A stretch of DNA of 64,000 bases from Candidatus Woesearchaeota archaeon (GCA_964367375.1 CAYIXG010000004.1:59556-123555); one strand, 5' to 3'. Positions 32,822 to 52,470 are shown, counted from the first letter of the stretch. Numbers and translations: made by a program. Notes: generated by a model from the sequence alone, not told the origin.

Positions 32822-33928
32822 ATGGTCATCTACGACGAATTCGGCCCAGAAAAAATCATTGAAGTATACAACCCTCGCGTTGGCATGAAAGGATTTCTTG
32901 TTATTGACAACACAGCTCTTGGCCCAGCAAAAGGAGGCATCCGCATGACTCCCTCAGTCAACCTTGAAGAGGTTGCACGACTCGCACGAGCCATGACCTG
33001 GAAATGCGCACTTGCAGAACTTCCCTTTGGCGGTGGAAAGAGCGGCATCATCGCAGATGACAAACAAATCACGCCACAGAAAAAGAAAGAACTCATCAAA
33101 GCATTTGCAGCATCACTCAAAGCAGTTGTTCCTGAACTTTACGTTGCAGCACCAGACATGAACACTGCGGAAGAAGAAATGAAACTCTTTGCAGACACTC
33201 TTGGCACAAAGAAGGCATGCACCGGCAAACCAGCCATCATGGGAGGCATACCCCATGAACTGGGAAGCACTGGATTTGGCGTTGTTGTTGCAACAACCGT
33301 TGGCGCAGCCTCTGCAGGCATTGACTTATCCCATGCGAGCGTTGCTATTGAAGGATTTGGAAATGTTGGTCAATTTGCAGCAAAGTTCATCACTGAAAAA
33401 GGTGCACGCCTCGTTGCCGTTTCTGACAGCAGAGGAGTCATTTTTAACTCCAAAGGACTTTCCTATGAAAAACTTATGAGCACTAAACAAGTAAAAGGAA
33501 CAGTTACTTCCTATGGTGATGGAAAAATACTACCTTCTCACGAAATAACTCGCGTCACTGCAGACATCCTCATCACTGCTGCAATCCCTGATCTTATTAC
33601 TGTTGATGAGGTTGATCATGTCAAAGCAAAACTCATCGTTGAGGGAAGCAATATTCCCATGACCTTCGAAGTTGAAGAACTCTTTCACAACAAAGGAATT
33701 TTAGTCATTCCAGACTTTGTCGCAAACGCTGGCGGCGTCATTAGCAGCTATGTTGAATATATTGGCGGCACCCCCAAACAGATGTGGAAAACAGTGGAAG
33801 AAAAAATCAAGAAAAACACTGCCCTTGTCTTGAAAGAAGCACACAAGAAACATTTACCGCCACGCACGTGCGCTCTTGAGATTGCAAAAAAACGCGTCCT
33901 GGCAAAATGCAAGAACTGCAGAATCTAA
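32822..33928 (+). CDS. Glu/Leu/Phe/Val dehydrogenase family protein (short, leucine/glutamate dehydrogenase-like)
   Basis: LGPAKGGIRMTP is the family signature around the catalytic Lys. Rossmann motif GFGNVGQ. Confidence 0.75.
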   Translation: MVIYDEFGPEKIIEVYNPRVGMKGFLVIDNTALGPAKGGIRMTPSVNLEEVARLARAMTWKCALAELPFGGGKSGIIADDKQITPQKKKELIKAFAASLKAVVPELYVAAPDMNTAEEEMKLFADTLGTKKACTGKPAIMGGIPHELGSTGFGVVVATTVGAASAGIDLSHASVAIEGFGNVGQFAAKFITEKGARLVAVSDSRGVIFNSKGLSYEKLMSTKQVKGTVTSYGDGKILPSHEITRVTADILITAAIPDLITVDEVDHVKAKLIVEGSNIPMTFEVEELFHNKGILVIPDFVANAGGVISSYVEYIGGTPKQMWKTVEEKIKKNTALVLKEAHKKHLPPRTCALEIAKKRVLAKCKNCRI

Positions 33929-37031: not shown

Positions 37032-38342
37032 TCATGTGCTTGACTGCCCACAATCCATAAACGCGCAAATAGCACCCGCATGCCTAAACCTCGGCACACC
37101 ACACTTCCTGATACTTTCCTCAATAATTGCAAGACCCTCATCTACCTCTTTCTGATGTATAATCAATGGCGGAATCACACGCACCGACCTTTGCCCGCAT
37201 CCTATAAGAATAAGCCCTCTTTTTACTGCTTCAATAATCACATCATCCCGCATCTTTCTTGAGGGAAGATCAAAGGCACGCATCAAACCCAGACCACGCA
37301 CATTCTGCACGTGAGACAGCTGCTCTTGCATGATTTGCATTCCTTTATGGAAATATGTGCCCATCTTCTCTGCATTTCTCAGAAGGTTTCTCTTTTTTAT
37401 TGTCCTTATTATTTGTATTCCCAGAGCAAGATCAAGCATATGACCGCCACCCCAAGTTGATGAGATTGCACTTTCTTCATCAGGAAACCATTTCTTGTTT
37501 GCAATTGTTGCACCCACCTGCAACGCCTTCGCAACAGACATAACTTCTGGCTTTATCCCAAAATGCTGAAACGCCCACCATTTTCCTGTCCTTCCCATTC
37601 CTGACTGCACCTCATCAGCAATCAACGGAATACCTAGCTCTTGCGTTACATTCCTTATACTCTTCACCATCTTCTTTGACGCAATATTATACCCTCCTTC
37701 ACCCTGCACATGCTCCAGAATAACAAAACCAATCTCCTCTGCACTTACCTCCCGCGCCGCTATCTTTTGTAGCACCTCTCCTGCAATCTCATCAAATGGC
37801 AAGCGACGCATGTTCATCGACAAAAAACCTCTCTTCTGCACCACCTTTGAATTGGTTGCAGACAATGCACCAAGTGTTCTCCCATGAAACGCACCCTCGA
37901 ATGAAATACCTATCTTTGTTGCTTTTCTCCTGCGCATACATATCTTCATCGCATTCTCCACAGCCTCTGCACCAGAATTGATCACAAACGCAGCGTTCAT
38001 ACCTGGCGGAGCAATTTTTGTCAGCTCCTCAAGCATCTCCGCATGCTCGCGCGTCGCAAAATCCTGACCTGCAATCTTCACCGGAGACATCTTCGCATAC
38101 TCACGCATCACTTCTCTCAGATCAGGATGATTATAGCCCAGAGGCTGCGTCGCAATCTGCGACCCAAAATCGAGAAAGACATTTCCATCTACATCCTTCA
38201 CATAACAGCCAGAGCCAGACTGATACACAAATGGATATGGACTATTCCTCGGACCATTCTTCTTCTGCAATATCTTTAGAACTTTCGCTGATCTAGGTCC
38301 AGGAATCTTCGTTTTAATAATAGCGTACACCTCTTTCACCAA
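37032..38342 (-). CDS. class III aminotransferase (GABA/putrescine/acetylornithine aminotransferase-like)
   Basis: ...INSGAEAVENAMK...LIADEVQSGMGRTGKWWA... Confidence 0.8.
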   Translation of the reverse strand: MVKEVYAIIKTKIPGPRSAKVLKILQKKNGPRNSPYPFVYQSGSGCYVKDVDGNVFLDFGSQIATQPLGYNHPDLREVMREYAKMSPVKIAGQDFATREHAEMLEELTKIAPPGMNAAFVINSGAEAVENAMKICMRRRKATKIGISFEGAFHGRTLGALSATNSKVVQKRGFLSMNMRRLPFDEIAGEVLQKIAAREVSAEEIGFVILEHVQGEGGYNIASKKMVKSIRNVTQELGIPLIADEVQSGMGRTGKWWAFQHFGIKPEVMSVAKALQVGATIANKKWFPDEESAISSTWGGGHMLDLALGIQIIRTIKKRNLLRNAEKMGTYFHKGMQIMQEQLSHVQNVRGLGLMRAFDLPSRKMRDDVIIEAVKRGLILIGCGQRSVRVIPPLIIHQKEVDEGLAIIEESIRKCGVPRFRHAGAICAFMDCGQSST

Positions 38343-39620: not shown

Positions 39621-41096
39621 TTACTTTCTTTTATCCACATCAATCTGCGCCTTCTGCAGCTTTCCCGAATAATCAATGTACACTGTTTTCACCTCAGAAA
39701 ACTCCTCAACGCCTAGAATGCCTGCTTCTCTTGTCCCGTTTCCTGTCTTCTTTATCCCTCCAAACGGCAGATGCACCTCTGCGCCTATCGTTGACGCATT
39801 CACATACGTAATTCCTGCCTCAATATGCTCAATAGCAGTAAACGCTTTTTGGATATCATTGGTGTAGATTGCAGAACTTAACCCATATTCAATTCCGTTA
39901 CACACTCGAATCGCTTCCCTCACATCATTCACCTTCATCAGAGACACACTCGGACCAAAAATTTCTTCCTGTGCAATCCTCATATGAGGTTTGACATTCG
40001 TGAAAACAGTAGGCTTGTAAAAGAAACCCCCCTTCTCCGGAAGAGCATATCCCCCAGTCACCAATTTTGCATGCTCCTTCTTCCCGATTTCAGTATACCG
40101 ATGCGTCTTCTTGACAGCATTCTCATTAATTAATGGACCTATATCTGTCGACTCCTTTAACGGATCACCCAGACGCAACCGCTCTGCCCTTTTCACTAGC
40201 ATTTCTTCAAATTCATCCTTCACCTCCTTGCTTACAATCACTCTTGATGCAGCTGTGCAGCGCTGCCCTGCAGTTCCAAAGGCACCAAACAAGACCCCTT
40301 CTAATGCAAGATCAAGATCAGCATCATCCATGATGATAATTGCGTTTTTCCCTCCCAGCTCCAAGCCAACTCTCTTCAACCCTGCGTTTGCCGCAACAAA
40401 TTCTCCTACGACTCTCGATCCTGTAAATGAGATACCTGCAAGCTTTTCATGCCGAATAATATGCGCACCCACCTCATCTCCTGACCCTGTCACCATATTG
40501 ATCACTCCTGGAGGGATTCCTGCCTCCTCACACGTCTTCACCAGCTCATACGCGCATAACGGCGTGTCTGATGCCGGCTTCAAGACAACTGCATTCCCAC
40601 AAACCAAGGCAGGAGCGAGCTTCCACGCAGGAATAGCCATCGGAAAATTCCAAGGCGTAATAAGACCAACAACACCTAACGGCCTTCGCATAGTACAACA
40701 AAACTTGCTCCTCAGCTCAGAAGGAGTTGTATGACCAAACAACCTTCTCCCCTCACCAGCCATATACTCAAAAATGTCAATCGCTTCTTGCACATCTCCC
40801 AGACCTTCAGACAAGATTTTTCCCATCTCCGTTGAGACAAGCCTTCCCAACTGCTGCTTCCTCCTCCTGAGGAGTCTTGCAACTTCTAATAAGACCTCAC
40901 CCCTCTGCGGTGCAGGAAGAGCAGCCCACTTCTTCTGCGCCTGATGCGCCACTGCAACTGCAGTATTCACATCTGTCTCAGAACCTGAACAAAAACTGGC
41001 TACTGCGCGCTTGTTCGTTGGGTTGAGAGACACAAACGTTTTCCTTCCCTTCGGATAGACTTCTCTTCCCGCAATCCACAAACCGTATTTTTTCAC
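39621..41096 (-). CDS. NAD(P)+-dependent aldehyde dehydrogenase
   Basis: ELGGKNA (catalytic Glu region), FGTAGQRCTAASR (catalytic Cys), FTGS.VVGE. Confidence 0.85.
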   Translation of the reverse strand: MKKYGLWIAGREVYPKGRKTFVSLNPTNKRAVASFCSGSETDVNTAVAVAHQAQKKWAALPAPQRGEVLLEVARLLRRRKQQLGRLVSTEMGKILSEGLGDVQEAIDIFEYMAGEGRRLFGHTTPSELRSKFCCTMRRPLGVVGLITPWNFPMAIPAWKLAPALVCGNAVVLKPASDTPLCAYELVKTCEEAGIPPGVINMVTGSGDEVGAHIIRHEKLAGISFTGSRVVGEFVAANAGLKRVGLELGGKNAIIIMDDADLDLALEGVLFGAFGTAGQRCTAASRVIVSKEVKDEFEEMLVKRAERLRLGDPLKESTDIGPLINENAVKKTHRYTEIGKKEHAKLVTGGYALPEKGGFFYKPTVFTNVKPHMRIAQEEIFGPSVSLMKVNDVREAIRVCNGIEYGLSSAIYTNDIQKAFTAIEHIEAGITYVNASTIGAEVHLPFGGIKKTGNGTREAGILGVEEFSEVKTVYIDYSGKLQKAQIDVDKRK

Positions 41097-41236: not shown

Positions 41237-41698
41237 ATGAACACACGCTTTGAACTGGGATTCGGTCCGCATCTCACTTTGGACCTGTCTGATTGTAATG
41301 TTGATAGGTTGAGTGATCCTGCGCACATTCTTCGCCTCTTAAATGATCTTCCTGAACAACTTGGCATGCGCAAAATCGCAGAGCCATACATCATTGATTA
41401 TCCTCCGCAAGAGCACACCTTTGACAAAGGAGGAGTCACCGCATTTGTACTCATTGCAGAATCACATATTTCCATTCACACCTTCAAAGAGCAACGCTAC
41501 GCATTCGTTGACATTTTTTCTTGCAAGCCCTTTGACGTTGACAAGGCAGTTGCGTACTTTGTTGATCATCTTGGCGCACGTAAACACTCAGTCAGACTGT
41601 TTGACCGAGGATTAGAATTTCCCAAAGAGATACCTGCTGTCAGCAAGTTCTTGAAACATGAACGCACAGACATCACACCCAACCCACCAAAATATTAA
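41237..41698 (+). CDS. speH: pyruvoyl-dependent S-adenosylmethionine decarboxylase family (SpeH; could equally be the archaeal arginine-decarboxylase paralog)
   Basis: ...VLIAESHISIHTFKEQRYAFVDIFSCKPFD contains the ESH processing-site motif. Confidence 0.8.
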   Translation: MNTRFELGFGPHLTLDLSDCNVDRLSDPAHILRLLNDLPEQLGMRKIAEPYIIDYPPQEHTFDKGGVTAFVLIAESHISIHTFKEQRYAFVDIFSCKPFDVDKAVAYFVDHLGARKHSVRLFDRGLEFPKEIPAVSKFLKHERTDITPNPPKY

Positions 41699-41724: not shown

Positions 41725-43245
41725 ATGATTTTAAAAAAGAAGGTGGAATTTGTTCTCTTACTCGCAATTCTTCTTGCTGCTGCCGTGTTCATTCCTTTAC
41801 TTTCCAACATACAAACAGGTTATGCTTCTCGAACGAGGTCAGCAACACCAGAAACCAGTGCTTCTTCAATATCTTCAGCAGAAAGCATATTCCTTGTTGA
41901 TGCTGATGAATCAGATGCTCGACAATTCTTAGAAACATCCCTCACCTCCGCAACCGATGACCATCTTCACCAAGCGATTCTCGCCCTTCAAAAAAATGAT
42001 GTTCTTCTTGGAGACACTGGAGAACCGGTGTTCACCTATGATGAGGACAAAGCGAAAGAACACCTTGAAGAATATATTACTCATTTAGATTCTTTACACG
42101 ATGATGAGCTTTTCATCGCTGTCAAACAATTTTATTCTGTCAAGCATTTATTCCCCAGTACCTTTCACGCTGATTACTTTCCCGAGGAGATTGTTGTAAA
42201 GAATTCCATCATTAGAATACAACACGGTGACACCATACTTGATGGAAAAGCAGTTGCAACTTCGGAATTCTTCCTCGTCAAAGATTCTGTCACCTTTCCG
42301 ATTTACTTCAAACGACCACTTCCCATGCCCAGTATTGATGCGATCTATCAAGGAAAGGGCTATACTTTGCGAGGCAAGGCTTATCTTGACACACCCCTTC
42401 CTTCTGCATCACCAGACAAACGAGAACGTGAGAGAGGGAGTGCAATCACTGGTATGCAAGCATATACACCAACCGGATTCAACCAAGTAAACCGAAGCAT
42501 TGCTATCATCCTTCCGAACACCACCAACTACACTCTCCCTCCAAACACTCTTTCTTATCTCACTACAAAACTCACCAACACTGTTGTCCCTTATTTCCAA
42601 GCAAACTCTGAAGGAACTGCAACCTACACCTTTACTTTATTTCCTGTTGATGTACCCAATTATGACCCTCAAAACAAAGGCTTTGACATAGAACGAATCG
42701 TCCTCGCGGCAGATCCGTACATTAATTATAACCAGTTTGACATGGTGGACATTCATGTCTCTACTTCCTCATTCCAAAATCCCAATTGCTGTTTTGGATA
42801 TGCAAATATCTGGCTTAACGGTCCAAACACTATTGCCACATTTGCGACAAATGAACCTTTGAAAGCAGTTGTTCCAATAACCTTCTTTAACCCAAACGAT
42901 CCTGACCATATTCAATTCACTGAGTTCGTCACTGAACATGAAATAGGGCATGAGCTTCACACCTTTAGTCAAAATTTCAACTCAAACTACTTTCAAGGCT
43001 ATGTTCCGCATGCACGCGGCTTTGACCAATGGACTTATCCGTGCACTACGAATGGACCCATATTCATCTGCAATAATATTTATGAGTATGGCGATCAATT
43101 AGATGTAATGGGAACAGGTAGAGGATTGTTTGCACACCACCGCGCAACCCACCAAATGGGACTTCGCAGTCCATCAAGCGTTCAATCACTCACAAGCTCA
43201 GGAACTTATACCCTTTGCAGCACCAACCACACAAGGATATGTTGA
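41725..43245 (+). CDS. secreted zincin-like metalloprotease, N-terminal 5' reading-frame segment
   Basis: N-terminal TM/signal. VTEHEIGHELHTF contains HExxH. The frame ends 38 codons after the point where a second frame opens at 43109. Confidence 0.5.
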   Translation: MILKKKVEFVLLLAILLAAAVFIPLLSNIQTGYASRTRSATPETSASSISSAESIFLVDADESDARQFLETSLTSATDDHLHQAILALQKNDVLLGDTGEPVFTYDEDKAKEHLEEYITHLDSLHDDELFIAVKQFYSVKHLFPSTFHADYFPEEIVVKNSIIRIQHGDTILDGKAVATSEFFLVKDSVTFPIYFKRPLPMPSIDAIYQGKGYTLRGKAYLDTPLPSASPDKRERERGSAITGMQAYTPTGFNQVNRSIAIILPNTTNYTLPPNTLSYLTTKLTNTVVPYFQANSEGTATYTFTLFPVDVPNYDPQNKGFDIERIVLAADPYINYNQFDMVDIHVSTSSFQNPNCCFGYANIWLNGPNTIATFATNEPLKAVVPITFFNPNDPDHIQFTEFVTEHEIGHELHTFSQNFNSNYFQGYVPHARGFDQWTYPCTTNGPIFICNNIYEYGDQLDVMGTGRGLFAHHRATHQMGLRSPSSVQSLTSSGTYTLCSTNHTRIC

Positions 43246-43702
43246 TGTACCCATTCCTCAAACTCTTGCAACTGTTCCTGCAAGAACCTATCCCTACACA
43301 GTCACTGTTGCCAGACTGACAAACCCCCAGTACAGCACCAGTGTTACTGATCTATTAACTTTACAATCATCTGCACCCCAAATTTACCTCTACAACACCT
43401 TTTACTGCCTTGACCTTGATCCTATGCCCTTCACCCAACAAACCCTTGGAGCAAACTATGTATCAACGTATCCTAACATTGGCGCTGTTGTCGCACCCAA
43501 CCCCTTTATTCCAGGATTGCCTCCTATCTTCTACGTTCCTGACCTCTGCTATGACAATTTAGGATTTGACTTTGTCAGCGACTTTGTTTGCTCAAACAAC
43601 ATTCCTGGACTTCCGCCAAACTACGGCGCATTAATAGCTCAAGACTGTCGAATTGCCACTAATAATCCACAATCACGATGTAACCTTGGCTCTTGCTATT
43701 AG
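43109..43702 (+). CDS. probable continuation of the zincin gene in the +1 frame (frameshift, pseudogene or sequencing error)
   Basis: This frame opens at 43109 with no ATG/RBS and has the same P/T/Y-rich composition as the upstream ORF. The track lists it from TTG 43130. Confidence 0.35.
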   Translation, partial: WEQVEDCLHTTAQPTKWDFAVHQAFNHSQAQELIPFAAPTTQGYVDVPIPQTLATVPARTYPYTVTVARLTNPQYSTSVTDLLTLQSSAPQIYLYNTFYCLDLDPMPFTQQTLGANYVSTYPNIGAVVAPNPFIPGLPPIFYVPDLCYDNLGFDFVSDFVCSNNIPGLPPNYGALIAQDCRIATNNPQSRCNLGSCY

Positions 43703-43711
43703 TTGTTTTCC

Positions 43712-44638
43712 TTAATTCAGTAGCTTTAGAATAAGAGCTTTCTGCATGTGCAACCTATTTTCTGCCTGATCGAACACAACAGATTGCTTTCCGTCAATTA
43801 CATCTTTCGTTACTTCCATTCCACGCACAGCAGGCAAACAGTGCATGAATACTGCAGACTTCTTTGCATGCTTCATCAACTCTTTGTTTACTTGATACCT
43901 CTTTAATGCTTTCATTCGAGACGATTTCTCTGCAGGATTAATGTTATAGGACATCCATGAATCTGTGTACACTACATCAGCATCCTTCACTGCTTTTTCT
44001 GGATCATGAATAACAACCACTTTTGATTTGTTCTTCTTCGCATATTTTCTCGCTTGCGCAAGCACTTGTGTCATTGGAGAAAACTTTTTTTCTTTCGGAC
44101 ATCCAATGACAATATTAATACCACTCATCGCACACCCCAGCATTAAGGAATGCGTCACATTATTTCTGCTATCACCTAGATACGCAACCTTCAAGCCCTT
44201 CTTTTTTCCACATACTTCTTGCATTGTCATAAGATCACTTAACGCTTGACACGGATGCTCCACATCACTCAACCCATTAATAACTGGAATAGACGCGTTT
44301 TTCGCTATGATCTCTATCGCCTTATGATCATACATCCTGATCATCATGATATCACAATACCTTGACACCACCCGAGCAACATCCTCAATACTTTCCTTTC
44401 CTTTCGACCAGGGAGAGGTTTCTGCATGATAATCAATCACTTCCCCACCCATCTGAAACATTGCAGAATCAAACGATAACTCCGTTCTCAACGACGGAGC
44501 TGCAAAAAACGTGAATAATACTTTTTCAAACACTTTTTTCTGATATTTTTTCGGATTCTTCTTTATTTCTCTCGCTTTTTTGATCAATTCTTTGATTTCT
44601 TTTTCCTTTACATCATTCATTGAAAGAAGGTGCTTCAT
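43712..44638 (-). CDS. divergent ornithine/putrescine-carbamoyltransferase-fold protein
   Basis: HPCQALSDL and HCLPAVRGMEV are OTC-like, but the carbamoyl-phosphate motif STRTR is replaced by SLRTE. Confidence 0.7.
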   Translation of the reverse strand: MKHLLSMNDVKEKEIKELIKKAREIKKNPKKYQKKVFEKVLFTFFAAPSLRTELSFDSAMFQMGGEVIDYHAETSPWSKGKESIEDVARVVSRYCDIMMIRMYDHKAIEIIAKNASIPVINGLSDVEHPCQALSDLMTMQEVCGKKKGLKVAYLGDSRNNVTHSLMLGCAMSGINIVIGCPKEKKFSPMTQVLAQARKYAKKNKSKVVVIHDPEKAVKDADVVYTDSWMSYNINPAEKSSRMKALKRYQVNKELMKHAKKSAVFMHCLPAVRGMEVTKDVIDGKQSVVFDQAENRLHMQKALILKLLN

Positions 44639-45948
44639 TTTTTTAATGCACTTAATATCATTTTCTTTAATTTCTGTTTTCCAAGCTCTTTGAATGAATA
44701 ACTCACGTTCACCACTCTTTTTTTTGTTTTTATCACATTTGACAAATTGACTGGAGACCCGTCAACAACTGCATCTGCGTCAGATCTGTTAATTGTTTGC
44801 TCTAACTCCTTCATCTGCCTTCTTGAATATCCCATTGCAGGCAAGATTTTCTTCACGTGCAGATATTTTTTGTATATCTCCTTTATTGAACCTACTGCAA
44901 ACTTTTCTGCATCAATGATTTTTCCCCCATATTTTTTTGCAACCAACGTTCCTGCACCAAATGACATGCCGCCATGCGTCACTGTCGGACCATCCTCAAT
45001 TACTATCACTTTCTTTCCTTTGATCCATTCAGGATTTTTCACTTCTTGCGGAGACGCTGCCCTAATGATTGTTGCTTTTGGATTCCAGACCTTACAATGC
45101 ATTTCTACATCCTTTATTGCACTTGCAGATGCAGTGTCCACTTTATTTATGATAAGTACATCCGCACTCAGAAAGTTCACCATTCCCGGATAATATGTTA
45201 TTTCATGACCACTCCGATGCGGATCAAGCACCACTACATTTATTGTCGGCTTGAAAAAGGAAAAATCGTTATTCCCCCCATCCCAAATAATCACCTCTGC
45301 TTCTTTTTCTGCCCTTTCCAAAATCTTCTTATAATCAACACCCGCATACACTGGAATTCCCATCTCAATCCAAGGAGTATACTCCTCTTCTTCCTCAATC
45401 GTGCACCTCTGCTTCTTCATATCACTCACCTTTGCAAACCGCTGCACCACCATTTTTTTCAAATCACCATATGGCATGGGATGTCGTACCGCAACCACAT
45501 TATACCCCTCATCCTTCAGCATTTTTGCAATCGCGCGAGACGTTTGCGATTTTCCTGCTCCCGTTCGTACCGCACAGATTGCGATTACTGGTTTTTTTGA
45601 ACGAATCATGGTATCTTTTGGACCTAAGAGCCTAAACGACGCGCCTGCAGCCATTGCCATTGATGCTTTTTCCATCACTTCCTGATGCGACAAATCAGAA
45701 TATGCAAGACACACCTCATCAATTTTTTCTTTCTTGATGAGCTCTACTAGTCTTTCTTCAGAATAAATAGGAATATCTCTTTTATACAAACGACCAGCCA
45801 TTGATTTTGGGAAGGTTCTTTTTTCAATTCCAGGAATCTGCGCAGCGGTAAACGCGACCACCTCATACTGTGGATTATCTTTAAAATACTGCAGAAAGTT
45901 TTGAAAATCCCTGCCACCAGCACCCATAATCACAACTCTCTTTTTCAT
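44635..45948 (-). CDS. COG2403-like predicted P-loop GTPase (cyclic 2,3-diphosphoglycerate-synthetase-like family)
   Basis: N-terminal Rossmann-like VVIMGAGGRDFQNF. G1 AVRTGAGKSQTS, DGGN, G4 IINKVD. 4-nt overlap with the transcarbamylase gene. Confidence 0.5.
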   Translation of the reverse strand: MKKRVVIMGAGGRDFQNFLQYFKDNPQYEVVAFTAAQIPGIEKRTFPKSMAGRLYKRDIPIYSEERLVELIKKEKIDEVCLAYSDLSHQEVMEKASMAMAAGASFRLLGPKDTMIRSKKPVIAICAVRTGAGKSQTSRAIAKMLKDEGYNVVAVRHPMPYGDLKKMVVQRFAKVSDMKKQRCTIEEEEEYTPWIEMGIPVYAGVDYKKILERAEKEAEVIIWDGGNNDFSFFKPTINVVVLDPHRSGHEITYYPGMVNFLSADVLIINKVDTASASAIKDVEMHCKVWNPKATIIRAASPQEVKNPEWIKGKKVIVIEDGPTVTHGGMSFGAGTLVAKKYGGKIIDAEKFAVGSIKEIYKKYLHVKKILPAMGYSRRQMKELEQTINRSDADAVVDGSPVNLSNVIKTKKRVVNVSYSFKELGKQKLKKMILSALKK

Positions 45949-46022
45949 TGTATACCCCTCTCTTCTTCACCCAACACTGCTATATAACCCTACCTCTTCC
46001 TACCTTACTATTCTAGAATACT

Positions 46023-46205
46023 TTACTCCTTTTTTAACCACTGAGAATCTGCAGTTCTTCCATCAAGCTCGGCAATCACCTTTTTCTTTTTTGACAGCTC
46101 TTGCAGTTCTTGCAACGTAACATCAGCAAATTTTCCTTTCTCACGCTTAATATTCTTATCAAGCATCAAATCAATTAAATGTTTTGAACCCTCTTTCTTT
46201 TCCAT
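46023..46205 (-). CDS. small hydrophilic protein (60 aa)
   Basis: ORF sits between the GTPase-like gene and carbamate kinase on the same strand. Confidence 0.3.
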   Translation of the reverse strand: MEKKEGSKHLIDLMLDKNIKREKGKFADVTLQELQELSKKKKVIAELDGRTADSQWLKKE

Positions 46206-46247
46206 ACCCTTTCTTCACCCTTTCTTCTATATAAACCTTATTCTCTC

Positions 46248-47192
46248 TCAAACAAGCATAGTCCCTGCCTTTCCCTTCACTGCCATTGGCACCTTCACAG
46301 GAGAGGTAATTACTACTTTCTTCCCTCCCTTTTCCAAAAACATGATCGCTGCCTCAATCTTCGGACCCATTGAACCAGGAGGAAACTGGCCTTCCTTTTG
46401 ATACTTCTTTGCATCCTTTACCGTCATTTTGTGCAGAGGCATCTGATTCTTCTTCCCAAAATTGAGAAACACATTATCTACCTCAGTAATAATTATGAGC
46501 TGTTCTGCCTGAATATCAATGCCGAGCTGCGCGGATGCGAGATCCTTATCAATCACTGCAGCCACACCCTTTAACTTCCCTTTTTCTTTAATGACTGGAA
46601 TTCCCCCACCCCCCGCAGCAATCACAATGCTCTGCTTCTTTAACAGCGCATCAATCATCTTCACCCCATCAATCTTTACTGGCTTTGGAGACGCGACTAC
46701 TCTCCTATACCCCCGCCCTTCTTGATATACTAGGGATATTCCTCTCTTTTTGAGCATCCTTGCTTGCTTTTCTGTATACGCTGACCCAATAGGCTTTGTC
46801 GGATGTTTAAATCCTGGATCATTTTTATCCACAATCACTTGTGTTAACACACTCACCACGCTTTTCCTTACTCTATGTTTTTCGAATTCATTTTCTAATG
46901 ACTGTTCAATCAGATACCCGACTTCCCCCTGCAACTCAGCATCCAACACATCAAGAGGGAGAGGAGGAACCTGCTTTTGTGCAAGCTCATTCTGCACCAC
47001 CAAGAATCCAATCTGTGGACCAGAACCGCACACAATCACTGCCTCATTCTTCTTAACAATCGGAAGAATCGCATGGCATACCTTCTGCACATTTTTCACC
47101 AGCTTCTGAAAAGATCCCTTTCCTTTTACCGGAGAGAGCGCATTTCCCCCTAAACTGATGACCATCCTCACTTCTTTTTCACCTCCCTTCAT
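46248..47192 (-). CDS. arcC: carbamate kinase
   Basis: MVISLGGNALSP...VCGSGPQIGF... matches the amino-acid kinase fold and CK N-terminal signature. Confidence 0.8.
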   Translation of the reverse strand: MKGGEKEVRMVISLGGNALSPVKGKGSFQKLVKNVQKVCHAILPIVKKNEAVIVCGSGPQIGFLVVQNELAQKQVPPLPLDVLDAELQGEVGYLIEQSLENEFEKHRVRKSVVSVLTQVIVDKNDPGFKHPTKPIGSAYTEKQARMLKKRGISLVYQEGRGYRRVVASPKPVKIDGVKMIDALLKKQSIVIAAGGGGIPVIKEKGKLKGVAAVIDKDLASAQLGIDIQAEQLIIITEVDNVFLNFGKKNQMPLHKMTVKDAKKYQKEGQFPPGSMGPKIEAAIMFLEKGGKKVVITSPVKVPMAVKGKAGTMLV

Positions 47193-47253
47193 TCATTTGC
47201 ACAGACAAAGGATTATTTAACCTTTATGGAAAAACACAACATAAGCACTTTTT

Positions 47254-47601
47254 TTATTCGTTACCCGTCGAAGACTTCTGCACAATTGCTTGCAACTGCT
47301 GCCCAACATATGCGTCGCTGAGATTCCTTGATCTATCTTTTCCCCTTGCATCAACATGTATTGATTCAAAGGAACCATCTTTTCCCTGATCAACCCCCTC
47401 AATATTTACATACTCCCCAAACATTGTCACTTGCTTTCTGAACACCCTTACTGCTCTCATTGAGTCATTCTCTCGAACCTCATATGCTAATCCTGCATAT
47501 GGGCCTTCATTCACTGTCCCTTTTTTCACCATTTGAGGAGAAGAAGCGCATCCACTGTGCAATGCTGCAACCAACGCAACCAGAGAAAAGAGCCTTTTCA
47601 T
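47254..47601 (-). CDS. small secreted (lipo)protein
   Basis: MKRLFSLVALVAALHSGCASS is a signal peptide with Cys at +1 of the likely cleavage site. Confidence 0.4.
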   Translation of the reverse strand: MKRLFSLVALVAALHSGCASSPQMVKKGTVNEGPYAGLAYEVRENDSMRAVRVFRKQVTMFGEYVNIEGVDQGKDGSFESIHVDARGKDRSRNLSDAYVGQQLQAIVQKSSTGNE

Positions 47602-47604
47602 CTT

Positions 47605-48102
47605 TCAATAATACCCCTTGTAAGGATACTTTTGGAAATGGCGATATCCTGTGTGATCATACGGATACTGGTGATAATAATACTTAGGGTACCCATACCG
47701 TGGATGGCGATAATCATAATCCCTGTATCTATCATATCTTCTATATGGATAATATGATGAACCGCCATAATTATTCACCACCACTTTCACATTCCCATTT
47801 GTGGAAGGATATTGCGTTGCTGACGCGCCAGACTGCTTGCATTCCACCTGCGGCTCGTAATTAGAATATCCAGTTACTTGCTGATTGCAAGGAGATTGCC
47901 CTTGATACGCTTGCCGTTGCTGTTGCACACTATACTTGTTAATCACAATCTGCTGCGTCGTTGTTGGAGCATCTGACTCTTGATACCTATTCTCTTTTGC
48001 ACTCGCATAAATGGCTGCCCCACCAGTTATTAGGGTAAACGCAACTACGAACACGATCAACGTCAAAATAAAATTCTTTGTATTCATCCTATGTACCCTC
48101 AA
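47605..48102 (-). CDS. secreted protein with a Gln-rich middle and an extreme Tyr/Arg/Pro/Asp-rich C-terminus
   Basis: Signal/TM, then ...YYPYRRYDRYRDYDYRHPRYGYPKYYYHQYPYDHTGYRHFQKYPYKGYY. Confidence 0.45.
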   Translation of the reverse strand: MRVHRMNTKNFILTLIVFVVAFTLITGGAAIYASAKENRYQESDAPTTTQQIVINKYSVQQQRQAYQGQSPCNQQVTGYSNYEPQVECKQSGASATQYPSTNGNVKVVVNNYGGSSYYPYRRYDRYRDYDYRHPRYGYPKYYYHQYPYDHTGYRHFQKYPYKGYY

Positions 48103-48172
48103 TTCCTTCTTTCACTTTCTACCTTTATAAGCTTTTTTACATCATAATAGTAGACTTATCAGTATTTCTTTT

Positions 48173-48703
48173 CTAGAACTCGCATACAGCACGCACTACA
48201 TCAAGATTTGCCTGCGTCCGCTTCAACTCCACTTCTGCCTCAGCAATATTTCCTTTCACCCTCTCAATCTGGGGAGTATATACCTCTTCCAATTCTTTAC
48301 TCTTTTGATCATACTCCGCTTGCAATCTGTTACGTTCTGCAACATCACTCCCTAAAAAACCTTTCACGTCAGCAACGTCGTCCTCAGCACCCTTTACATC
48401 AGAGGCACATTTTCCACCATACTCAATAAATTCTTTTTGTTCCTTTTCTTGCACTATTGGCGGAGACACTTGCTCTTCTTCAATACTTTCTCCAACATTT
48501 TCACCAACACTCTTTCCCACCTGTTGCGCTTTCTGCTCAGGAATATTCTGCACCGCAGTCGCTCCAGAAATGATGTTGCTCTTTTCCTTGTCTTGCCCCC
48601 AGAACATATACCCTATTCCTGCAATTAATACAAGTGCAATAATGCCTATCACCAGACCTCTCTTTCCTTCCCATCCAAAAATCTCCCTATTCCTTCTGTT
48701 CAT
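48173..48703 (-). CDS. membrane-anchored coiled-coil protein
   Basis: N-terminal TM LVIGIIALVLIAGIGYMFW and a C-terminal coiled coil. Confidence 0.4.
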   Translation of the reverse strand: MNRRNREIFGWEGKRGLVIGIIALVLIAGIGYMFWGQDKEKSNIISGATAVQNIPEQKAQQVGKSVGENVGESIEEEQVSPPIVQEKEQKEFIEYGGKCASDVKGAEDDVADVKGFLGSDVAERNRLQAEYDQKSKELEEVYTPQIERVKGNIAEAEVELKRTQANLDVVRAVCEF

Positions 48704-48764: not shown

Positions 48765-49490
48765 CTATCTTTTTGCTATGTTCCAGAGAACATCAAAAAC
48801 TGCTCTTTGTGTATTTCTAATTGCCTTATCATCTATCTTTACGCCAATAATCTCCTTTTCTAAAGTGATGATTGCTATTTTATCACCAAAAATAAATGTC
48901 ATTGCTCGAACATCTTTTAACGACGTAAGAAACTTAAGATTTGTCACTTTCTTTACCTCTGGATTGGTATACCAAAATTCTGTCTTTTCCGATCTCTCCG
49001 TAAGAATTAAATTAAGTATAATGGAACGTTCTATTCTCTTTCGTGCATAACTCTTTGGAATGTGTTTTGTTTCTTCTGTTACATTTATTGGCGAACCATA
49101 TGCATATAACTCTTTTTCTTCATAAATCTCATTTAATAATGTTATAATTCCTTTTACTCCTTCGTAAATGACAACCTGCGGTCTTTTGCTAAAACTTCCC
49201 GCACGTTCTCTTAACTTTGGAATAAGATCTTTTAAAAAATTTTCTTTTAATTTTAATTGATTTAGCAACTCTTTTGGATCCACAGCACTATACAATAACT
49301 TTTTCTCTTTTTTGTATGAGGCAATAAAACCTTTCTCTGTTAGTCTGTTTAGTGTATCATAAATAGTTGACCTTGGTAGTCCTGTCCTACTTGAAATAAG
49401 AGCAACTGATGCATTTTTTAATTCCAAGGTTGCAAGATACACTCTTATTTCATTATCTGATAACCCGATCTCTCGTAATTCATCTTCCAT
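48765..49490 (-). CDS. TrmB-family transcriptional regulator (paralog 4, AT-rich)
   Basis: RVYLATLELKNASVALISSRTGLPRSTIYDTLNRLTEKGFI. C-terminal ...VFDVLWNIAKR. Confidence 0.6.
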   Translation of the reverse strand: MEDELREIGLSDNEIRVYLATLELKNASVALISSRTGLPRSTIYDTLNRLTEKGFIASYKKEKKLLYSAVDPKELLNQLKLKENFLKDLIPKLRERAGSFSKRPQVVIYEGVKGIITLLNEIYEEKELYAYGSPINVTEETKHIPKSYARKRIERSIILNLILTERSEKTEFWYTNPEVKKVTNLKFLTSLKDVRAMTFIFGDKIAIITLEKEIIGVKIDDKAIRNTQRAVFDVLWNIAKR

Positions 49491-51447: not shown

Positions 51448-52470
51448 TTATTCAATACACAATACTGGCGGATTCTTCAACAGCTCGTTCATAATCTCAA
51501 TAGCATGATTAATGTCACGCCGATGCGCAATGCTCGTTGTTGTGTGAATATTCCTGATAGGAATGCTAATCACTCCTGTTGGAATGCCACCCTTTGCTAC
51601 AGAAATGCTTAACGCATCTGTTGTTCCTAAATCAGTCACTTCAAGCTGGATTGGAATCTTCTTCTTCCTTGATATTTCCTTAAATAAGTCGTTGATGCAC
51701 TTGTTTCCAATCATATCTGCATCCTTCACCGTAATGCACGGACCACCACCCAATTTTTTTGTGTACTTGTCCATATCAAAATCGTCACACCCTGTTGTTT
51801 CCACAACCAACGCCCAATCAGGATTTATCGAATACATTGACGTTTTTGAACCGTATAACCCCACTTCCTCCTGCACTGTAAACACAAACATGAGATCTGC
51901 CTTACTCTTTTGCAACCTCTTTGCCAACTCAATTAAAATAAAGCATCCCAATCGATCATCCAATGCCTTCCCACAAATAATATCATTATTTCCCAAATAT
52001 GCCGCTTCAGCATCAATATGCATGTATTCCCCTATGCTCACACCCAATTTCTTCAATTCTTTCTTTGTCAAACCAGTGTCCACAATCAAATCATGCATCT
52101 TCGGCACTTGCGTCATCTCCTCCTCTCCTGTAATCTCTTTTGTTGTAATAATACCCCGAATAAATCCCTTCTTTGTCGGAATTTTGACGTGCTCACCCAT
52201 CAAAGTTATCGGCTCAAGACCACCGACCTCTGCACAATAAATCCAGCCCCCTTCACTTATACTTCTCACCATTAAGCCCACTTCATCCATATGCGCGACA
52301 AGCATCACCGCTGGAGATTTTCCCTTATGATGTGCAATCAGATTCCCAAACTTGTCCACTTTCACCTCATCCACATACTTCTTAATCTCCTTTTCAATCA
52401 TATGACGAATAGGCTTTTCAAAACCACTCGGACCGGAAGCATTAATCAATTTCATCAAGAATTCAGACAT
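51448..52470 (-). CDS. M42-family (TET/FrvX-like) aminopeptidase
   Basis: ...AVMLVAHMDEVGLMV... shows the co-catalytic metal-ligand pattern. 340 aa. Confidence 0.8.
   Translation of the reverse strand: MSEFLMKLINASGPSGFEKPIRHMIEKEIKKYVDEVKVDKFGNLIAHHKGKSPAVMLVAHMDEVGLMVRSISEGGWIYCAEVGGLEPITLMGEHVKIPTKKGFIRGIITTKEITGEEEMTQVPKMHDLIVDTGLTKKELKKLGVSIGEYMHIDAEAAYLGNNDIICGKALDDRLGCFILIELAKRLQKSKADLMFVFTVQEEVGLYGSKTSMYSINPDWALVVETTGCDDFDMDKYTKKLGGGPCITVKDADMIGNKCINDLFKEISRKKKIPIQLEVTDLGTTDALSISVAKGGIPTGVISIPIRNIHTTTSIAHRRDINHAIEIMNELLKNPPVLCIE

Follow-up and report, generated by a model that had tools for sequence, protein, structure and literature searches.

We analyzed a stretch of 64,000 nucleotides from Candidatus Woesearchaeota archaeon (GCA_964367375.1, CAYIXG010000004.1:59556-123555), here called the window; the analysis covers these 64 kb of the genome. 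Between positions 43,712 and 47,192 the window carries four open reading frames (ORFs), all on the minus strand. In the order of transcription they are the gene of a carbamate kinase of 314 amino acids (aa) (arcC, 46248..47192), an orphan ORF of 60 aa (46023..46205), the gene of a 437-aa protein (44635..45948) and the gene of a 308-aa transcarbamylase (43712..44638). The last two genes overlap by 4 nt with the sequence ATGA (44635-44638), and the 60-aa ORF sits in the gap of 300 nt that follows arcC. A first-pass annotation of this DNA had described the ORFs, their coordinates and the 4-nt overlap, together with the HPxQ, HCLP and SLRTE motifs of the transcarbamylase and the GAGKS and NKVD motifs of the 437-aa protein, and the translations confirm all of these. 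It was also right that the genes are linked, but it had their order wrong: the kinase is transcribed first and the transcarbamylase last.

The nearest homologs of the 437-aa protein and of the transcarbamylase come from Woesearchaeota, Nanoarchaeota, Aenigmarchaeota and Diapherotrites, and the identical sequence is present in a 0.1-µm groundwater sample from Hainich. The host is a groundwater archaeon of the DPANN group. Neither Rfam families nor tRNAs were found when the window was scanned.

The ArcE homolog

The 437-aa protein contains the motifs RTGAGKSQ and INKVD, and scans for Pfam and NCBIfam families returned nothing specific for it. Its N-terminus is Rossmann-like, as had been proposed, according to a weak match to PF01408, the AlphaFold2 model and fold matches of the glyceraldehyde-3-phosphate dehydrogenase type. 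The first pointer toward arginine metabolism was a homolog in Petrotoga whose gene directly follows an arginine deiminase (ADI) gene. Querying with the Aciduliprofundum ortholog then led to the homologs in the Thermococcales. To the Thermococcus/Palaeococcus cluster P0297 (201 sequences) and to P0318 of Pyrococcus furiosus the window protein is 59% identical, with about 75% positives over 436-437 residues, that is full length, and one gap. Via these relatives we draw the link to TK2200 of Thermococcus kodakarensis, which was characterized in 2024 as ArcE or "arginine synthetase" and which converts arginine, ADP and Pi to citrulline, NH3 and ATP (PMC11032458). TK2200 is specific for L-arginine and does not use agmatine, D-arginine or guanidine. 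Homologs of ArcE are reported throughout the Thermococcales and in many bacteria, where they are annotated as putative GTPases; their fold is like that of LpxK with weak similarity to cyclic 2,3-diphosphoglycerate (cDPG) synthase, and in some genomes they are found near arcB or arcC (PMC11032458).

The AlphaFold2 model of the window protein has a pLDDT (predicted local distance difference test score) of 92.9. With Foldseek its best matches are the cDPG synthetase (cDPGS) structures 8ork (E = 5e-17, 17% identity) and 8oru (16-17%), followed by the LpxK structures 4ehx, 4lkv and 4ehw. These relations are the same as those reported for TK2200 and thus support the identification as ArcE. The window protein shares with the cDPGS of Methanothermus fervidus (PDB 8ORK/8ORU), its best structural match, a Rossmann-like N-domain and a P-loop domain. 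However, identity is 16-17%, phmmer aligns it to cDPGS 9sxb over a partial region with E = 6e-4, and the substrate and the reaction are different. The kinship with cDPGS that the first-pass annotation had assumed is therefore a distant one, and close sequence similarity to the M. fervidus enzyme is not found.

The Walker A residues G130-x-G132-K133-S134 and K269 of the NKxD motif are invariant in 84 homologs. The family is highly conserved: in both bacterial and archaeal phyla its members are 52-62% identical to the window protein. By these alignments the 437-aa protein is closely homologous to the ArcE proteins of the Thermococcales, and it presumably shares the substrates of TK2200.

Most records of the ArcE family, those of the Thermococcales included, are named "cyclic 2,3-diphosphoglycerate synthase" or "GTPase" in NCBI and UniRef, and a literature search for COG2403 found nothing. 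We consider these names probably wrong, a case of over-annotation, because identity to the real cDPGS is 16-17% and because of the 2024 characterization. In Petrotoga sp. 9PWA.NaAc.5.4 (AZRK01000044.1, L009:6784-9332) the 3′ end of the ADI gene (PF02274) reaches 4 nt into the gene of the ArcE homolog, which is 60% identical to the window protein. As ADI and ArcE usually exclude each other (PMC11032458), this pair is an exception.

The transcarbamylase

The transcarbamylase has both OTCase domains (Pfam) and the motifs PSLRTE, HPCQ, DSWMSYN and HCLPAVRG. It scores 358.4 bits with TIGR00658, the equivalog model of ornithine transcarbamylase (OTC), against a cut-off of 280.85, and 363.6 with NF001986 (cut-off 306). 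The best solved matches are the OTC of P. furiosus (1e-78) and the OTC of Giardia (3grf, 1.5e-73). The first-pass annotation had called the enzyme divergent, since the carbamoyl-phosphate loop STRTR, which it took as universally conserved, reads SLRTE and so loses a terminal arginine thought to bind the phosphate. The register is fixed by alignment to five solved OTCs, in which STRTR corresponds to SLRTE and SMG to SYN, the latter a further deviation that had not been noted. For example PSTRTRVSFE of P. furiosus 1a1s aligns to PSLRTELSFD and DVWASMG to DSWMSYN. An STRTR motif hidden in another register was considered and is ruled out by the same alignments.

The loop is, however, not universal. 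The solved OTC from T. thermophilus (PDB 2ef0) has SLRTR, Arabidopsis OTC has SMRTR and the phaseolotoxin-resistant OTC of P. syringae has SGRTS (PMC10765591). Nor is the fifth residue described as a ligand of the phosphate: the contacts in Arabidopsis OTC are made by the first four residues of the motif, by R174 and by R154 of the neighboring subunit, and the fifth arginine is not listed (PMC10765591). Among 120 close homologs of the window protein this position is occupied by E, R, I, K, M or Q.

In 119 homologs S49, R51, T52, R101, H128, Q131, N159, N160, D226 and R295 are invariant and S230 (118/119), L268 (117/119) and C267 (109/119) nearly so. Judged from the alignment, the window OTC keeps all residues listed as ligands of carbamoyl phosphate (S-x-R-T, the arginine of strand beta3, HPxQ, HCLP and the C-terminal arginine; PMC10765591), and the direct ligands of ornithine appear to be kept as well. 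In the ornithine loop DxxxSMG it retains D226 and S230 as well as N159/N160, and the methionine is changed to tyrosine and the glycine to asparagine. The methionine makes a backbone contact in the Arabidopsis enzyme (PMC10765591). The change to SYN is compatible with OTC function because the SY loop also occurs in the OTC of Giardia and in OTCs encoded in arginine operons. The bacterial OTCs linked to ArcE have SLRTR or STRTR and a normal SMG loop. We also observed that HDLP replaces HCLP in 10 of the 119 close homologs, so the cysteine is not fixed in the clade, and that the first position is N in 12, as in NCLP of Giardia. The homologs concerned include P0020, P0027, P0030, P0032, P0038, P0081, P0090, P0091 and P0115.

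The OTC of Giardia lamblia (PDB 3GRF; Galkin et al. 2009) is a catabolic enzyme that acts on ornithine and stands outside the two main OTC clades (PMC3282769, PMC10765591). Window protein and Giardia enzyme have in common PSLRT, the GDS-x-NNV insertion (GDSMNNV in Giardia), GKE in the 80s-loop and the DSWMSY loop. They differ in that Giardia has a lysine two residues before the S-x-R-T motif (FFAKPS), the fifth arginine (SLRTR), a histidine after SY (DSWMSYH) and NCLP; the corresponding residues of the window protein are A47, E53, N232 and HCLP. The related P. furiosus OTC, in contrast, has the canonical STRTR and SMG. In a neighbor-joining tree all SY-loop sequences form one clade within the OTCs, with two subclades. 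One of them is linked to ArcE. The other is found in the order argG-OTC-argH-argJ (followed by argB-argD in locus L104) or beside carAB (L106), and it is here that the OTCs from true arginine operons of DPANN archaea are placed. The transcarbamylase is thus by its sequence an OTC of the SY-loop (Giardia-type) clade, with SLRTE and SYN as traits of the subfamily. With a score above the TIGR00658 cut-off, the SY loop of 3GRF and a sister subclade in ordinary arginine biosynthesis operons, it can hardly be called divergent.

The ArcE-linked subclade also deviates at the lysine two residues before S-x-R-T. This residue (K88 in human OTC) is described as constant in OTCs, where it pairs with the alpha-carboxylate of ornithine (Polo et al., PMC3282769). 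It is lost in the ArcE-linked subclade and retained in just 16 of the 119 close homologs. The loss is coupled to position 3 of the SMG loop: all 16 sequences that keep the lysine have histidine there, and 83 of the 104 that lack it have arginine or lysine. We infer that the charge pairing with the alpha-carboxylate has moved from the lysine to the loop. E53 and loop position 3 were also considered as a compensating pair and rejected, as the counts show no strict coupling and that between the lysine and position 3 is stronger.

Conservation of the cluster

The kinase matches PF00696 and NF009007 (333.6, cut-off 266) and falls slightly below the cut-off of TIGR00746 (341.8 against 358.25). It is 45-58% identical to the kinase at the equivalent position in six DPANN loci, and its earlier naming as a carbamate kinase stands. 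Of 80 loci with an ArcE homolog, taken from a wide range of bacteria and archaea, 20 have a carbamate kinase gene, an OTC gene or both next to it, among them loci of Aminicenantes, Caldiserica, WOR-3 and Brocadia. The order kinase-ArcE-OTC is conserved in the DPANN loci L090, L092, L170, L171, L172 and L173. Even the 4-nt overlap between the ArcE and OTC genes is exact in L090 and L170-L173; L092 is slightly different.

In the other DPANN loci arcC and arcE overlap or are separated by at most 35 nt, whereas the window has the 60-aa ORF between them. This ORF was called by the gene callers on the source contig. It has no Pfam or NCBIfam match and no homolog among 169 related loci, and it is probably not part of the pathway. 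A LysW-like carrier was rejected because the ORF has neither homologs nor the cysteine pairs or acidic tail of LysW.

TATA-like A/T-rich elements are present on the minus strand at 45981-45987, 46228-46235 and 47213-47224, about 25-36 nt 5′ of the starts of arcE, the 60-aa ORF and arcC. They read GGTTATATAG, GGTTTATATAG and AAGGTTAAATAA, respectively, and each of the first two is followed by GGGTGAAGAA. The leaders of arcE and of the 60-aa ORF resemble a short duplication. A search for a shared promoter motif by strict consensus came up empty, as a single base separates the two copies. The similar TATA-like leaders suggest that arcE-arcB could be transcribed separately from arcC.

Two other gene contexts in relatives may be mentioned. 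In the Aenigmarchaeota locus L172 (2455-3819, JACPJW010000001.1) pyrB-pyrI, which encode the catalytic and the regulatory chain of aspartate transcarbamylase, lie about 1 kb from the kinase-ArcE-OTC genes. This proximity fits a 2026 report that the pathway of T. kodakarensis provides carbamoyl phosphate for pyrimidines (PMC13260591). In Bathyarchaeia (eight contigs, L001-L008:4700-9715) the ArcE homolog does not adjoin carbamate kinase or OTC genes; it comes after a PALP-family enzyme, a 211-aa protein and a class-I/II aminotransferase and overlaps a cyclophilin-like gene.

Proposed pathway

We suggest that the four genes (arcC, orphan ORF, arcE, arcB) are very probably an operon of the arginine synthetase pathway in a DPANN archaeon. 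The proposal combines the protein homologies, the conserved linkage and the OTC ligand residues observed here with the ArcE reaction and its L-arginine specificity, which are taken from the literature on T. kodakarensis. ArcE, a homolog of the arginine synthetase or ATP-forming arginine deiminase, would convert L-arginine, ADP and Pi to citrulline, NH3 and ATP in a reaction predicted to be reversible. The arcB-type OTC could then phosphorolyze citrulline to ornithine and carbamoyl phosphate (citrulline + Pi <-> ornithine + carbamoyl phosphate). Finally, carbamate kinase would use carbamoyl phosphate and ADP to form carbamate and a second ATP. In sum two ATP per arginine would be gained by substrate-level phosphorylation without a hydrolytic deiminase. 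No homolog of ADI, argG, argH, carAB or pyrB is present in the 64-kb window. That the locus has no deiminase is explained by ArcE, which would itself carry out the deimination of arginine. We agree with the first-pass annotation that the module is ATP-yielding and that it differs from the standard clusters of ADI and agmatine deiminase. We infer that the pathway runs in the catabolic direction, and it may also feed carbamoyl phosphate to pyrimidines.

The system is of a known kind that has already been described. In T. kodakarensis the pathway consists of ArcE (TK2200), ArcB (TK0871) and ArcC (TK2158) (Michimori, Yokooji, Atomi 2024; PMC11032458; also PMC13260591). The window has the same three enzyme families, the same fold relations to cDPGS and LpxK and likewise no ADI. 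Its genes, however, form one tight cluster with overlapping arcE and arcB, whereas the locus numbers in T. kodakarensis are far apart, and the host is a mesophilic groundwater archaeon of the DPANN group, which is unmentioned in PMC11032458. With the classical arcABC pathway the system shares the OTC and carbamate kinase steps, and in both arginine would end up as ornithine, 2 NH3 and CO2. Here, however, the hydrolytic ADI (PF02274) would be replaced by an unrelated P-loop enzyme that saves the energy of deimination as a second ATP. New, though minor, are the occurrence of the pathway in DPANN archaea and an OTC subclade without the lysine typical of OTCs.

Neighboring genes

Further genes in the window point to the fate of ornithine. 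A class-III aminotransferase (436 aa, 37032..38342, minus strand; PF00202, 2e-88) is a candidate ornithine aminotransferase. Its best NCBIfam match is the acetylornithine aminotransferase family, under the cut-off, and it is 54-55% identical to a neighbor of the cluster in L010 and L173. An aldehyde dehydrogenase (491 aa, 39621..41096, minus strand; PF00171, 3e-169) is a candidate glutamate-semialdehyde dehydrogenase downstream of ornithine; all its NCBIfam matches are under the cut-off and none assigns it specifically, and it is 61-70% identical to the aldehyde dehydrogenase beside kinase-ArcE-OTC in L010, L172 and L173. A glutamate dehydrogenase-type enzyme (368 aa, 32822..33928, plus strand; PF00208 and PF02812) could possibly provide the last step from glutamate to 2-oxoglutarate. 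It shares 59% identity with the ELFV dehydrogenase that adjoins the cluster of the Aenigmarchaeota locus L172, and its NCBIfam glutamate dehydrogenase matches are under the cut-off. Ornithine would probably pass on through these three enzymes. An M42 aminopeptidase (340 aa, 51448..52470, minus strand; PF05343, 3e-85) may plausibly supply free amino acids; each of the six compared DPANN loci encodes a homolog (50-57% identity) no more than a few kb from the cluster.

The window also has TrmB regulators, an ADP-forming acyl-CoA synthetase alpha subunit and the archaeal termination factor FttA as neighbors. Upstream of arcC and on the same strand are three small ORFs of 115, 165 and 176 aa without family match (47254-48703 and 48765-49490, minus strand), with a TrmB-family regulator ahead of them; the 176-aa ORF corresponds, at 30% identity, to an ORF close to the cluster of L170. 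A gene with the fold of S-adenosylmethionine (AdoMet) decarboxylase (41237-41698, plus strand; TIGR03330, 84 bits, above the cut-off of 75.65) sits between the aldehyde dehydrogenase gene and a protease-like ORF and is missing from the other DPANN loci in the comparison. The latter ORF (506 aa, 41725-43245, plus strand) has no family match. It has an N-terminal hydrophobic anchor and the zinc-metalloprotease motif TEHEIGHE, and it runs toward the 3′ end of the OTC gene. A Cys/Pro-rich ORF of 190 aa (43130-43702, plus strand) overlaps it in a different frame, and the two could be one gene of a secreted protease with a frameshift.

Discussion

Several points weigh against an arginine synthetase pathway in the window. 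The 15 members listed for cluster P0297, out of 201, do not include T. kodakarensis, and the link to TK2200 rests for this reason on the statement that the family occurs throughout the Thermococcales (PMC11032458). The functions of the DPANN ArcE and of the OTC subclade are predictions from homology. As ArcE is reversible the flux could run either way, and no arginine or ornithine transporter was identified in the window. A further point is the handling of the alpha-carboxylate by the OTC of the window. With A47 and N232 it has a basic residue neither two residues before S-x-R-T nor at loop position 3, a combination shared by six of the 104 sequences without the lysine. Thus, the relocation of the charge that we propose for the subclade leaves this enzyme unexplained.

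The same three enzymes could in principle run in the biosynthetic direction. Carbamate kinase would make carbamoyl phosphate, OTC would make citrulline and ArcE would form arginine from citrulline, NH3 and ATP, which would replace argG and argH in a reduced genome. ArcE is indeed reversible and supports growth of T. kodakarensis on citrulline, and such a role has been proposed for organisms without argG and argH (PMC11032458). It would fit that argG, argH and carAB are all missing from the window, although this argument spans 64 kb of the genome only. However, the reported equilibrium lies on the side of citrulline and ATP (K = 10.1; PMC11032458), and the conserved neighbors (M42 aminopeptidase, class-III aminotransferase, aldehyde dehydrogenase, glutamate dehydrogenase) are catabolic in character. 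In addition, two positive charges that flank the carbamoyl-phosphate loop are gone from the ArcE-linked subclade of OTCs, whose members would be expected to capture carbamoyl phosphate more weakly, and the OTCs of DPANN arginine operons fall in the other subclade. We therefore regard a biosynthetic role as unlikely.

The first-pass annotation had favored a non-canonical substrate. Such a reading could be based on the loss of the lysine and often of the fifth arginine in the subclade and on the missing compensating basic residue in the loop of the window OTC: the transcarbamylase would have moved away from citrulline and ornithine and would form, together with a re-specialized ArcE, an ATP-forming deiminase pathway for a substrate without alpha-carboxylate, for example agmatine via N-carbamoylputrescine. 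We consider this reading very unlikely, also in its most concrete form, in which the ArcE homolog would act as an ATP-forming agmatine deiminase and the transcarbamylase as an enzyme of the putrescine type. The absence of the lysine, constant in OTCs, is one published signature of putrescine transcarbamylases (PMC3282769), and the enzyme of E. faecalis (PDB 3TXX/4A8H; Polo et al. 2012) works like the one proposed here in a catabolic, ATP-yielding context with carbamate kinase. But the other three signatures are missing. The 230-loop of putrescine transcarbamylases has the signature (Y/W)(G/W)(V/L/I)X, with DVWYGLY in E. faecalis (PMC3282769); the window protein has no such YGLY-type loop but MSYN, with the serine retained as are D226 and N159/N160. 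The C-terminal helix of about 20 residues is also not found, since the protein stops where OTCs stop (across the clade the extension has a median of 1 residue), and the score with TIGR04384 is 266.7 against a cut-off of 500. The missing basic residue in the loop of the window protein (N232) would fit the putrescine type, but the nearest relatives have Arg, His or Lys at this position.

The gene context is ambiguous in this respect, as the aminotransferase and the aldehyde dehydrogenase would fit the catabolism of putrescine equally well, and the gene with the AdoMet decarboxylase fold lies at a distance of 2 kb. This fold also includes arginine decarboxylases. The gene passes, however, the equivalog model of the S-adenosylmethionine decarboxylases, and the other DPANN loci have no counterpart. 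Finally, TK2200 is inactive with agmatine, D-arginine and guanidine, and the window protein is over its full length 59% identical to the Thermococcales relatives of this L-arginine-specific enzyme. This speaks against a non-canonical substrate and for arginine as the substrate of the cluster.

The arginine synthetase pathway described in 2024 is thus extended to a lineage absent from the original paper, where the present database names "GTPase" and "cyclic 2,3-diphosphoglycerate synthase" hide it. Enzymologists may take an interest in a naturally occurring OTC subclade that has replaced an active-site lysine regarded as constant. DPANN archaea have very small genomes and few recognized routes to ATP, and for them a compact operon of carbamate kinase, ArcE and OTC would give two ATP per arginine.

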